From positions 6,485 to 70,484 of the forward strand of contig CAVOIK010000022.1 in assembly GCA_963695895.1 (NCBI GenBank): a DNA stretch of 64,000 bases, given 5' to 3'. The stretch comes from an uncultured delta proteobacterium (lineage in GTDB: Bacteria; Desulfobacterota; BSN033; UBA1163). Below are positions 56,696 through 59,693 of the stretch, in pieces. The number at the start of each line of letters is the position of its first letter. Positions within the stretch are counted from its first letter, which is position 1. The position numbers were made by a program, and so were the translations under genes. Under the pieces are notes generated by a model. The model had not been told where the DNA came from, did no database searches, and saw only the letters and a program-made list of their open reading frames with translations.

Positions 56696-56867
56696 TAAAA
56701 CATGACTTTTTCTGTAGCAAGTGCAATAAGCAGATAGGTTCTTACCGTTCTTTCGAAAAGTAACCCTGTATGGCTCTTCGGCTGATCCCTGAACCAAAAA
56801 GCGAATTTCTTCCATAAACAAGACTTCCCCTTTCCGGCATTAGAATTAGCTCCGTTCATCGGATCGA

Positions 56868-57305
56868 TTATTCATTCAGTTCACCAGTTTTCAGGAAGTT
56901 GACAAACTCTCTTTGAGATAATTTGTATTCTTTAACGGCTATTAGAGATGTAGATTCCTTATCCGGCTTATATATCGTGAAGTTAACCATGCCTTCAACA
57001 AGATTCTTATTCTTATCAAGAATCGTCGGTGTTGCAGATGTGATTTTGCAGGCAATTTTTATAGCTTTAAGAGCTTGTCCCCATTTTCTATAAGCTTTGG
57101 GGGTGTCATAAAACAAATGACCTTCAGCAAAAGAGAAATACGGCCCTTGAGTCCACTCCAAAAAGGACTGTTTATTCTTCTTACGTTCTGTAAATTTAAT
57201 GTCTAGCTGATTGCGATAACATTCTTTGACAGCCATAAACCAGCCATCAGCATATCCATTGACAAAATCTGCAATAAGATGTGTGTGGCGTTTGCCTGTT
57301 TCCAT
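56868..57305 (-). CDS. Hypothetical protein in AT-rich block, 145 aa
   Basis: The ATG at 57305 (METGKRH...) is preceded by TAGGAGCAAGA, directly after the ligA stop. No family was recognised. Confidence 0.5.
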   Translation of the reverse strand: METGKRHTHLIADFVNGYADGWFMAVKECYRNQLDIKFTERKKNKQSFLEWTQGPYFSFAEGHLFYDTPKAYRKWGQALKAIKIACKITSATPTILDKNKNLVEGMVNFTIYKPDKESTSLIAVKEYKLSQREFVNFLKTGELNE

Positions 57306-57334
57306 TCTTGCTCCTAAGAATGAAAAGTATTCTC

Positions 57335-59492
57335 TCACCTTGAAGCAGTTTTTACCATTTCAAGCCATTCAGCCTCAGAAAGCAATGGAATTCCTAACTC
57401 CTTTGCCCTTTGTGCTTTAGAGCCAGCACCTGGCCCAGCAATCACATAATCGGTTTTGCTTGACACATCGCCAGCGACAATAGCTCCGAGAGATTCAGCT
57501 TTGGCCTTGGCTTCGCTACGGGTCATTGTCTCAAGTGTTCCAGTGAAGACAATTGTCTTGCCAGCCAATTGCGAGGTGGTTGTCCGAGAAACCTCGAAGT
57601 CTGTCACTTCAATTTGTGAAATGATATCTTTTAAAATTGAAGAAGTTTTGGGGGTCAGCAAAAAAAGCCAAAATCTTATCAGCTACTATTGGCCCAATAC
57701 CATTGATGCTTTCCAAGTGCTTGTATTCATCGGATTTTCGGTTTTGAGCTGCTTTCATAGCCGCTCAAGAAATTGTTCAGAGATACATAATTACGAGCAA
57801 GTAACTTTGCAGTAGCCTCTCCAACTTGGTTTATGCCGAGAGCATAGATAAAGCGGTCAAGGGAAATTGTCTTTACGTCTTCTAATGGCTTCAAATAACT
57901 TATTTGCAGAAACTGGTCCCCATCCTTCACGTTCTTGCAACGGTAGGAATTTTTCTTTCTCCCTCTTGTTAGAGTTGAAAATATTTGAGGGAGCTAATTT
58001 CTCTTCGAGCCGAAAAATATCTGCAGGTGATTTAAGTAATCCTTCCTTAAAGAATATTTCTATATTCTTTTCCCCTAACCCCTCAATATCAAAGGCATCG
58101 CGTGAGGCAAAGTGTATTAAACGCTCTAATAATTGAGCCGGGCACTTGAGGCTTGCTGTACAGATCCAAACTGCTTCACCAGGTTCTCTAATTGCTACAC
58201 TATTACAGGATGGACAACGATTCGGAAAAATGAATGGCTCAGCATCAAGAGGACGCTTATCAATTAGAACTGACACTACTTGAGGAATTACATCTCCGGC
58301 ACGTTGAACTATAACGAGATCTCCGACACGAAAATCCTTACGTTCGATTTCATCCTGATTATGGAGTGTAGCACGAGAGACTAAGACTCCGCCGACGTTG
58401 ACCGGCTCCAATTCCGCAATAGGAGTTAAAGCTCCCATTCTGCCAACAGAGATAGAAATAGACTTGATATGCGTTTGTGCTCTTTCAGGTGAGAATTTGT
58501 GCGCTATTGCCCAGCGAGGTTCGCGGACTATGAATCCTAATCTTTCCTGAAGATCAAGCCGATTAACCTTGTAGACTACTCCGTCAATAGAAAACCCAAG
58601 ACTCGACCTTTTACTCTCCATCTCCTCATAATAAGCTTTGATCTCCTCAAGATTATTTACTAAACGTGAAGGTTCATTTAGTTTAAAGCCCCACGACGCC
58701 AAACGACTTCTTGCCTCCCATTGTGTTTTTGCAAAAGAGCGGGATACTTCACCCCAAGCATAGGCAAAAAAGCGGAGAGGACGTGAAGCTGTGATTCTTG
58801 GAGTCTAATTGACGGAGACTTCCTGCTGCTGCATTACGGGGATTAGCAAAAATCTTTTCGCCAGAACTCTCCTGTTGCTCGTTAAGCCGGATGAAATCAT
58901 CGTCTGTCATGTAGACTTCACCGCGAATCTCTATCAGATTGGGAGAATTAGATGGAAGTACTTTGGGTATATCCTTGATGGTCTTGGCATTTTCGGTCAC
59001 GTCCTCACCAACTTGCCCATCACCTCTGGTCGCCGCCTGAATCAGCCTATGATTTTCGTATCGCAAAGAACAAGATACGCCATCTATTTTAGGTTCTGCG
59101 ACGAAATCAAAGTGGGCAGAAGAATCTTTCAGCTCAATTATAAAAGTACGTATGCTGTTTATAAAATCGCTGACTTTCTCGAAAGTATAAACGAATTTCA
59201 ATGACAACATTGGGACAGAATGACGAACTTTCCTCAATCCACTTGGAGGGAGATAACCCACTCTCTTAGATGGGCTATCGGAGCGAATAAGATGGGGAAA
59301 GCGAGCTTCAATATCTTCATTGCGCCTTCTTAGTTCATCATATTCGGCGTCTGTAATTTCTGGTCGAGCTTCTTCGTACAGAAGGTCGTGGTGAGCAATC
59401 AATTCCGCTAAGTCAGCAAGTTCTTGACTTGCCTGTTGCTCAGTTAATTTATCCACATTGATATCAAAGTATTTTGAGCGTTTCTTTTTCAT
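57335..59492 (-). pseudogene. ligA: NAD-dependent DNA ligase, AT-rich xenolog with its own start codon, at least three frame disruptions
   Basis: [54 protein letters not shown]...KIDGVS (adenylation Lys), an OB fold, the Zn finger CPSCNS...C...CP, HhH motifs and a BRCT domain ([10 protein letters not shown]). The frames break near 58780, 57890 and 57700. Confidence 0.85.
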
Positions 59493-59552
59493 GTGAGTAC
59501 ACCCTTTGAGTTGGTGAATTGGGAGAGCGAAGCTCAGGGATACTGCTCTTCG

Positions 59553-59693
59553 AAGCTTCTCCAGCTCCCTCATCAGACGGTCGTATTCTGCATCGGTTAT
59601 CTCCGGCTGATCGAGGACGTAGTAGCGGTAGTTATGGTACTCAATCTCCTCTCGGAGTTTCTCGACCTTTTTTCTGATGGCTTCCGAAACCAT
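59553..59693 (-). pseudogene. ligA: 5' fragment (~47 codons) of a native-composition ligA, fused in frame to the downstream xenolog
   Basis: [47 protein letters not shown] is a canonical LigA N-terminus. The rest of this gene is absent from the window. Confidence 0.7.

Follow-up and report, generated by a model that had tools for sequence, protein, structure and literature searches.

A foreign-type DNA ligase gene in place of resident ligA in an uncultured delta proteobacterium: a probable recent displacement in situ

What does the displacement of an essential gene look like soon after it has happened? The ligA locus, which encodes NAD+-dependent DNA ligase, probably offers an answer in a 64-kb stretch of contig CAVOIK010000022.1 from an uncultured, anaerobic delta proteobacterium (the window; coordinates below are window positions unless a compared locus, denoted by an L-number, is named). 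Positions 56722-59507 form a foreign block of about 2.8 kb that takes the place of 1.85 kb of native ligA. Codons 65-667 of the native gene are replaced in it by a complete foreign-type NAD+-dependent ligase gene, here called ligA*, by a gene for a 145-aa protein (ORF145; ORF, open reading frame) and by the opening 33 codons of a gene that encodes a SWIM zinc-finger protein. We propose, from the comparison of sequences, that this is quite probably a genuine xenologous displacement in situ of the essential ligase gene, and a recent one in this strain.

The block stands apart from its surroundings in composition. Its G+C content is 42.0%, as against 50.9% in the rest of the window, and the G+C fraction at third codon positions (GC3) is 0.355 in ligA* and 0.342 in ORF145, as against 0.50-0.63 in the flanking native genes. 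A preliminary description of the window, made from its letters, had called the block AT-rich on the strength of two counts of G+C, and both counts are exact (21 of 60 at 57001-57060 and 36 of 60 at 45001-45060). It had also read the minus-strand ORF at 58749-59693 as a LigA N-terminus that continues into a second LigA, which has a Met of its own, with the rest of the native gene missing, and this outline holds. The ORF opens with LigA domain Ia (Pfam Nlig-Ia, residues 9-49), and the second LigA that follows the stub gives a DNA_ligase_aden match at E=3e-54. As described, that second gene extends in shifted frames to 57335, with the adenylation, OB and Zn-finger regions at 57857-58702 and BRCT at 57335-57661. 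Beyond the block and the stub no second ligA fragment occurs anywhere in the 64-kb window, and the native-type remainder is a stub of 64 codons only.

The native state of the locus is found in near-identical strains. Exact-protein look-up with MraZ retrieved two contigs from ENA, L001 (ERZ25039502 contig_49595) and L002 (ERZ25039554 contig_44260), and in both the gene order is DUF6982, an intact minus-strand ligA of 667 aa, and mraZ. The window aligns to both contigs up to 56721 on the left and again from 59529 on the right, and the right flank (59750-64000) is 98-100% identical to L002 in a sliding profile. The window order is DUF6982, cassette plus stub, mraZ; the locus is that of the resident gene and synteny is retained. 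The native ligA of L002 has a host-like GC3 of 0.61, and the native allele belongs to a 90% cluster of 62 members. The ORF145 of the window has no relative above 89%, and exact-protein look-ups with ORF145 and with the fused 314-aa ORF returned no other contig. The original gene is still kept by near-identical strains and, as these alignments read, the swap is caught while polymorphic. The two reference contigs are themselves distinguishable, as L001 carries an extra insertion of ~105 nt (L001 ~7457-7565) between the ligA stop and an inverted-repeat (IR) element discussed below; its ligA call is lengthened to 798 aa by a frameshift. Short-read Logan contigs with an identical mraZ (ERR12036778 and ERR15459715) stop 34 and 50 codons into ligA, near the stub crossover of the window. 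These contig ends are suggestive only, and may reflect a break in the assembly graph where native and cassette alleles coexist in those samples.

The right side of the block is a mosaic within ligA. Within the 5' region of the gene the match to L002 falls from 115/116 to 50/70, and this switch is the homologous crossover that characterises homology-facilitated illegitimate recombination (HFIR). The proximal stub is that of the recipient lineage, and other stubs match it at 75-92 of its 116 nt. The distal stub more closely resembles L093, an intact native ligA of another lineage, and L092, another cassette-linked stub; it appears to derive from a different lineage and to have been imported with the cassette. 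Two +1 insertions in the distal stub (~59553 and ~59540) are specific to the window and absent from all other compared sequences. What had been described as 20 unrelated codons between the two N-termini are in fact native-type ligA codons 48-64, put out of frame by these two insertions, and then the donor leader of about 15 nt. Likewise, the reported in-frame fusion of stub and ligA* is there as the sequence reads, and depends on the same two insertions, which are probably sequence errors. If they are, the fusion is also an artefact, and the stub ORF would end at 59464, overlapping the start of ligA*. A 4-nt overlap between the called stub ORF and ligA*, present in L086 and L089, suggests translational coupling. 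Every cassette-bearing stub ends at native residue 64-65, and the ancestral junction lies there at the microhomology AGGG(G)T (native ..CAGAGGGTTGG.. versus donor ..AAAGGGGTTAC..). Upstream, the TTGACA..TCTAAAAT motif of the window also precedes the stubs in L005, L086 and L087.

On the left side the block stops inside the SWIM gene, which in its full-length form in L003-L006 and L089 carries on as ..CPAG..CKH past the cut. The letters CTTGC are present in both parents at the junction (with a slash at the join, window ..GCACTTGC/TACAGAAAAAG..; L005 SWIM gene ..GCACTTGC/CCGG..; L002 ..TGTCTTGC/TACAGAAAAAG..), which is the short-microhomology illegitimate join of HFIR. The preliminary description had let the left border coincide with an IR-bounded repeat. 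The true border lies at 56717-56722, within the truncated SWIM gene, and the supposed repeat has one copy in the window and no part in the event. Its arms of 37 nt are 76% complementary, its predicted RNA fold has a z-score of -4.6, and it is 100% identical and in the same place in L002. Since it is single-copy and identical beside the intact native ligA in L001 and L002, it is native and does not bound the block; it is probably a 3' element. Its candidacy as the border of a mobile element was ruled out on the same grounds.

Table 1. Features of the ligA locus in the window, from left to right.
Feature	Position	Strand	Basis or remark
DUF6982 gene, native left flank	56151-56558	+	exact product encoded on the L002 contig; flank 54250-56721 98-100% identical to L002
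IR-bounded structured element, native, 3' of ligA	56548-56706		arms 56548-56584 and 56670-56706
Left junction, 5-nt microhomology CTTGC, SWIM gene/native 3' untranslated region (UTR)	56717-56721	-	11 nt downstream of the native ligA stop
SWIM zinc-finger gene, first 33 codons, cut at ..YCTC	56717-56815	-	aligns to full 110-121-aa SWIM genes of L003-L006 and L089
ORF145, conserved small protein, 145 aa	56868-57305	-	directly after ligA in relatives
ligA*, NAD+-dependent DNA ligase, 718 codons after removal of four single-base insertions	57335-59492	-	Pfam domains and full-length relatives
+1 insertion no. 4	within 57642-57645	-	alignment to relatives
+1 insertion no. 3	within 57763-57769	-	alignment to relatives
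+1 insertion no. 2	57869, approximate	-	alignment to relatives
+1 insertion no. 1, GAC[T]CCAAG	58802, approximate	-	gap in L086, L087, L089, L005 and L006
Donor 5' leader, 15 nt, Shine-Dalgarno-like AAAGGGTG	59493-59507	-	L006 alignment starts at window 59507 = L006 5986, 15 nt before the ATG
Distal stub, native-type ligA codons ~40-64	59508-59577	-	50/70 nt to L002, 61/70 to L093, 58/70 to the L092 stub
Proximal stub, native ligA codons 1-39 of the recipient lineage	59578-59693	-	115/116 nt identical to native ligA of L002 and L001
Native ligA promoter-like site, TTGACA-17-TAAAAT, 11/12	59735-59763	-	upstream of the stub; consensus match only, putative function
mraZ, native right flank, start of the dcw cluster	60102-60542	+	exact protein in L001, L002 and four Logan contigs

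Is ligA* a working gene? Its pieces match Pfam Nlig-Ia, DNA_ligase_aden, DNA_ligase_OB, DNA_ligase_ZBD and BRCT in the domain order of LigA, and HHH_2 is found on its 88%-identical full-length relatives. The translation contains the catalytic lysine motif KxDG (..AEPKIDGVS..) and the four Zn-finger cysteines (CPSC..(x)..CTASLKC), and corrected ligA* is 88% identical over 100% of its length to 718-aa environmental proteins. As the sequence reads, ligA* is not a single uninterrupted frame: it has exactly four breaks, each of one extra base, located by alignment to five relatives (L086, L087, L089, L005 and L006). All six indels of block and stub are +1 insertions at non-homopolymer sites, unique to the window. 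The same kind of insertion splits the native genes for FTHFS (52948 and 53039) and FtsI (62147) relative to L002, and CdhD, a class-A penicillin-binding protein (PBP) and alpha-2-macroglobulin are also split. We think it likely that the four frameshifts of ligA* and the two of the stub are consensus errors of an indel-prone assembly, and on that reading ligA* would be the cell's working replicative ligase.

The arrangement is not confined to the window. The stub, ligA* and ORF145, with or without the SWIM gene, recur in six further contigs from five other samples in ENA and JGI. The contigs were produced by different assemblers, and four of them bear k141_ names. They are L005 and L087 (both ERZ27247850), L086 (ERZ27256953), L088 (JGI 3300003852), L089 (JGI 3300009166) and L092 (JGI Ga0315275). 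Native 3' remnants of ligA persist in L005 (residues 526-666), in L087 and L088 (residues 597-665 in each) and in L089 (residues 506-666, with two further BRCT pieces). These remnants indicate that the founding event was an insertion or replacement inside native ligA, of which the window holds a derivative without the 3' remnant. The stub-linked ligA* copies are monophyletic with respect to the cinA-linked, donor-type copies in 60 of 60 neighbour-joining (NJ) bootstraps, and this monophyly together with the identical junction argues for one founding insertion.

The cassette has had further fates in these relatives. Between cassette and 3' remnant, L089 (2848-7503) holds genes for DUF5677, an RNase_T-BRCT protein and two PhdYeFM antitoxins (one with ParE) and two extra BRCT fragments, and these extra genes suggest serial insertions at the same site. 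L003, a 306-kb contig of the same ERZ250394xx-395xx series as L001 and L002, contains at 7795-10701 a frameshifted ligA* without its first ~71 codons, then ORF145, the SWIM gene and a 21-aa relic of a native-type LigA C-terminus, in a non-dcw context with NUDIX flanks. It looks like a relocated, decaying form of the inserted cassette.

Where did the cassette come from? The only close match to ligA* among species-representative genomes is in L006, a metagenome-assembled genome (MAG) labelled Nitrospinota (JAHILQ010000076; 83% identity), where positions 5986-8771 are collinear with the block. P0024 (labelled Nitrospirota) and L004 (GCA_041643025.1) are each 81% identical to ligA*. Both L006 and L004 have, in order, aspS, a pseudouridine synthase gene, cinA, ligA*, an ORF145 homologue (a 270-aa call in L004), the SWIM gene and DUF498, with a G+C content of ~42% throughout and in an ordinary chromosomal context. 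The resemblance of the second N-terminus to alphaproteobacterial LigA, remarked upon in the preliminary description, is real as a distant affinity (45-56% identity); the close relatives are the Nitrospinota- and Nitrospirota-labelled MAGs (81-83%), and an alphaproteobacterial direct donor is ruled out. A LigA phylogeny for both parts, which had been suggested as a check, separates them widely. The two enzymes are 40% identical and lie in separate deep clades of an NJ tree, ligA* in a large clade with Deferrimicrobium, 'deltaproteobacterial' and alphaproteobacterial enzymes, and native LigA far off among sequences labelled Thermodesulfobacteriota or Deltaproteobacteria.

The cassette is much less diverged than its hosts and is younger than the host split. 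Between the window and L005, identity at fourfold-degenerate sites is 0.665 for ligA* and 0.60 for ORF145, and 0.46, 0.36 and 0.35 for MraZ, RsmH and FtsI, respectively. Similarly, between the window and L087 it is 0.658 for ligA* and 0.395 for a Lactamase_B flank; the random expectation is 0.27-0.29. Across genus-level distances the dcw flanks are ~67% and the cassette ~84% identical. The immediate source was probably another host that already bore the cassette inside its own ligA, not the donor lineage.

We propose that the present arrangement arose in two steps. In an ancestral step, shown by the shared junctions, the middle of ligA in some relative of the host was replaced by a stretch of chromosomal DNA from a low-GC donor, which began 15 nt before ligA* and took in ORF145 and the SWIM gene. 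The join was illegitimate, at the AGGG(G)T microhomology that follows native codon 64, and what remained of the resident gene was a 5' stub and, on the 3' side, an HhH/BRCT remnant. In a later step, suggested by the mosaic stub, DNA from a cassette-bearer would have entered the window lineage, then carrying an intact native ligA like that of L001 and L002, and would have been integrated by HFIR, which was originally reported from bacteria capable of natural transformation. A homologous crossover inside the conserved 5' region of ligA, at ~59578, would have been paired with an illegitimate join at the 5-nt CTTGC, 11 nt past the native stop, with deletion of native codons ~40-667 and of the distal part of the SWIM gene. 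One end anchored in ligA and the other joined illegitimately is the signature of HFIR; the same outcome would be reached by homologous crossovers at both ends and a later deletion. The flanks at 98-100% identity to L002, the mosaic stub, and a native allele that is common beside a cassette allele that is rare together argue for lateral import into a native-ligA background. After integration, ligA* would be read from the retained native promoter and leader, with its own imported ribosome-binding site. Because the insert would destroy the only resident ligase gene, a recombinant would be viable only if the insert carried a working ligase, and such an insert could thereafter not be lost.

The ligase does not travel alone. 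ORF145 directly follows ligA in L003-L006, L028, L086-L089 and Pelobacter propionicus, and so the question raised in the preliminary description, whether the 145-aa gene travels with this type of ligA in a donor lineage, is answered in the affirmative. The trio of ligA, ORF145 and SWIM gene also occurs in Desulfuromonas sp. (L028) and in P. propionicus DSM 2379, a cultured, fully sequenced bacterium (L091 2897-5836, CP000482.1 ~3361139-3364078). There LigA is 56% identical to ligA*, the ORF145 homologue (159 aa) is 51% identical and overlaps ligA by 11 nt at its start, and the SWIM protein (110 aa) is 54% identical to the donor-type protein. The P. propionicus operon thus resembles the cassette in its gene content and differs from it as a resident chromosomal operon without stub or remnant. 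This resident trio indicates a natural unit of the LigA subfamily, not a mobile element, and we take the trio to be a conserved unit of LigA plus two uncharacterised small proteins. ORF145 has ~150 homologues and matches no Pfam or NCBIfam family. Its AlphaFold2 model has a pLDDT of 71 (medium confidence) and no fold match in the PDB at E<=0.001; the top PDB matches, levivirus coat proteins at a TM score of ~0.2, were dismissed as meaningless. Some relatives of ligA* (P0011, P0019, P0022, P0027-P0030, P0049-P0052 and L092 210-2723) are 801-842 aa long and carry an insertion of ~114 aa in the HhH region (..LNRLTIELAHP..ETPK..), and at least one of these insertion-bearing relatives, L092, is stub-linked too. 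An N-terminal fusion in the 831-842-aa relatives was considered and ruled out in favour of this internal insertion.

Several observations weigh against a recent replacement by a functional ligase. The left junction was found in no other assembly in a scan of JGI metagenomes, and it is therefore known from the window contig only. A second scan, with a 26-mer from the stub, returned L092 and L093 and not the window allele. Indels are denser in the block (six in ~2.2 kb) than in the near-identical flank (one in ~7 kb), so that the frameshifts could be real and ligA* a very young pseudogene. All the trees are NJ trees; the direct donor is, to judge from a best ligA* match of 88%, unsampled; and the direction of the recent exchange is read from allele frequencies, such that the cassette may have come in or native ligA may have been restored in L001 and L002. 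If the replacement is real and ligA* is a true, very recent pseudogene, the cell would use a ligase encoded outside the 64-kb window, and besides the indel density this would suit the 5'-truncated, frameshifted ligA* of L003, which shows that cassette decay occurs elsewhere. We nevertheless regard it as unlikely. ligA* has no change at 204 family-invariant columns, at which other family members have 0-13, and neither an in-frame stop nor a deletion. Moreover, FTHFS and FtsI are broken by identical single-base insertions and CdhD is split, and dead copies of such genes are very unlikely in a Wood-Ljungdahl organism; the sibling assembly L001 is likewise full of split genes; and the indels cluster where strains differ, in the FTHFS region and the cassette, as they would for a poorly polished minority allele. 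An assembly chimera, in which the assembler spliced DNA of a second organism into the contig, was one of the two explanations offered in the preliminary description. The abrupt shift in G+C from 51% to 42%, the left junction peculiar to the window contig and the enrichment of errors in the block are what a chimera might produce, but six independent contigs, drawn from other samples and built by other assemblers, share the same stub/ligA* junction, which makes a chimera very unlikely. The right border is, moreover, a clean crossover in homologous ligA and the left a 5-nt microhomology, together removing exactly ligA, and it is hardly credible that two independent mis-joins should surround one gene and swap in a functional analogue. 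The other explanation, xenologous displacement at the gene's own locus, is the one borne out by the intact gene in near-identical relatives and by the recurrence of the junction in six contigs.

The direction of the exchange could also be reversed, with the cassette ancestral in the species and a native-type ligA regained by L001 and L002 from a relative through homologous recombination. Taken alone, the symmetrical breakpoint in the stub gives the event no polarity, and among related lineages the cassette is both old and widely distributed. We consider this improbable all the same, given that the native allele is common (the 62-member cluster) and the cassette allele of the window has been seen once only, that L001 and L002 already differ by the 105-nt insertion in the 3' UTR, that the GC3 of L002 ligA is host-like, and that the distal stub matches the L093 lineage rather than L002. 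Less probable still is active targeting of ligA by an autonomous mobile element whose mobility machinery would be ORF145 and the SWIM protein. Such an element could explain the same insertion point in many hosts, the company of two conserved genes without annotated function, and the further cargo and extra BRCT remnants gained at the site in L089. However, Pfam and NCBIfam searches find no integrase, transposase or relaxase in the block, there are no terminal repeats or target duplications (the only nearby inverted repeat is native), and the trio sits in an ordinary housekeeping or non-mobile context in the donor-type genomes and in P. propionicus; taken together these speak against a mobile element. 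The shared junction and the monophyly point instead to one insertion that was passed on, not to repeated targeting. Within the displacement that we favour, a more speculative idea can be entertained, though we doubt it more than we believe it: the relics of the destroyed conserved gene might act as portable homology arms, making the cassette self-complementing and self-targeting and letting it spread passively through several host lineages in the manner of a gene drive. Recombination might then occur into the ligA of any moderately related genome, even at genus-level distances, conceivably with some help from ORF145 and the SWIM protein.

The displacement of an essential informational gene is usually recognised late, from discordant trees, and the survival of the exchange is rarely visible. 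Here the intermediate can be examined at nucleotide resolution: the stub, the 3' remnant of relatives, the donor leader, both junctions, and sister strains with the old gene. The locus further illustrates a route by which an insert that lands in an essential gene would be viable only if it complements that gene, and would then be fixed, and it hints that relics of a conserved gene may serve as homology arms for further spread, including between distant hosts. Because the trio is present in cultured P. propionicus, its function is open to study there.

How does this locus compare with known systems? Omelchenko et al. (2003, Genome Biol 4:R55) reportedly described how mosaic operons evolve through horizontal transfer and the in-situ displacement of genes, and the ligA locus resembles such cases in that a foreign equivalent occupies the resident locus, synteny is kept and its phylogeny is discordant with that of the neighbours. 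Classical xenologous displacement is inferred from phylogeny after the traces have gone, whereas here the junctions, the stub and the 3' remnant of relatives persist, and strains whose flanks are 98-100% identical carry either the displaced or the displacing allele. The likeness to HFIR, as defined in PMC3240628, lies in the homologous crossover at one end, the CTTGC microhomology join at the other and the replacement of resident DNA. The difference is that the process is here deduced from sequence, and that the homologous anchor would be a relic of a gene which the cassette destroyed in an earlier host. Similarly, the effector/immunity genes of the Vibrio cholerae type VI secretion system undergo sequential displacement, in which modules replace residents at a fixed locus and leave remnants (PMC5361080), much as three BRCT remnants lie in L089. 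Those are accessory competition genes under diversifying selection, whereas ligA is a single-copy essential replication gene and its insert must complement. Prochlorococcus marinus is reported to deviate from the standard NAD+-dependent LigA as replication ligase (bioRxiv 10.1101/2020.05.11.089284). That case likewise indicates that the bacterial replicative ligase is exchangeable in evolution; it concerns ATP- versus NAD-dependent enzymes, so that any substitution there would be non-orthologous, in contrast to the present swap between LigA subfamilies of 40% identity at the same locus. Our literature searches found no description of this ligA cassette. The locus is a case of in-situ xenologous displacement by a known recombination route and not a new kind of system; what is unusual is that every intermediate feature is preserved for an essential replication gene, and that the state is polymorphic among near-identical strains.

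Finally, we note some features of the surroundings. For annotation, the locus carries a warning, since it looks like a broken or fused ligA on a contig with many single-base insertions that split essential genes. The split native genes appear as overlapping ORFs at 17688-23421 (alpha-2-macroglobulin, in three pieces), 24013-25930 (class-A PBP, transglycosylase and transpeptidase), 40948-42295 (CdhD), 51999-53782 (FTHFS) and 61828-63805 (FtsI). Where a reference exists, the cause of the split is a single extra non-homopolymer base, and the contig seems prone to indel errors. The FTHFS region at 52000-54000 is 78-95% identical to L002 and 91-95% to L001, as against 98-100% for 54250-64000 outside the cassette. 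It forms a second strain-variable or recombinant tract near the ligA locus, and indels cluster there too. Scans for tRNA genes and Rfam families returned none in the whole 64 kb. To the left of the locus, positions 28997-53782 encode a Wood-Ljungdahl set that comprises an MTHFR-like protein, CODH/prismane, CdhD, a CooC-like ATPase, FolD, RACo and FTHFS.

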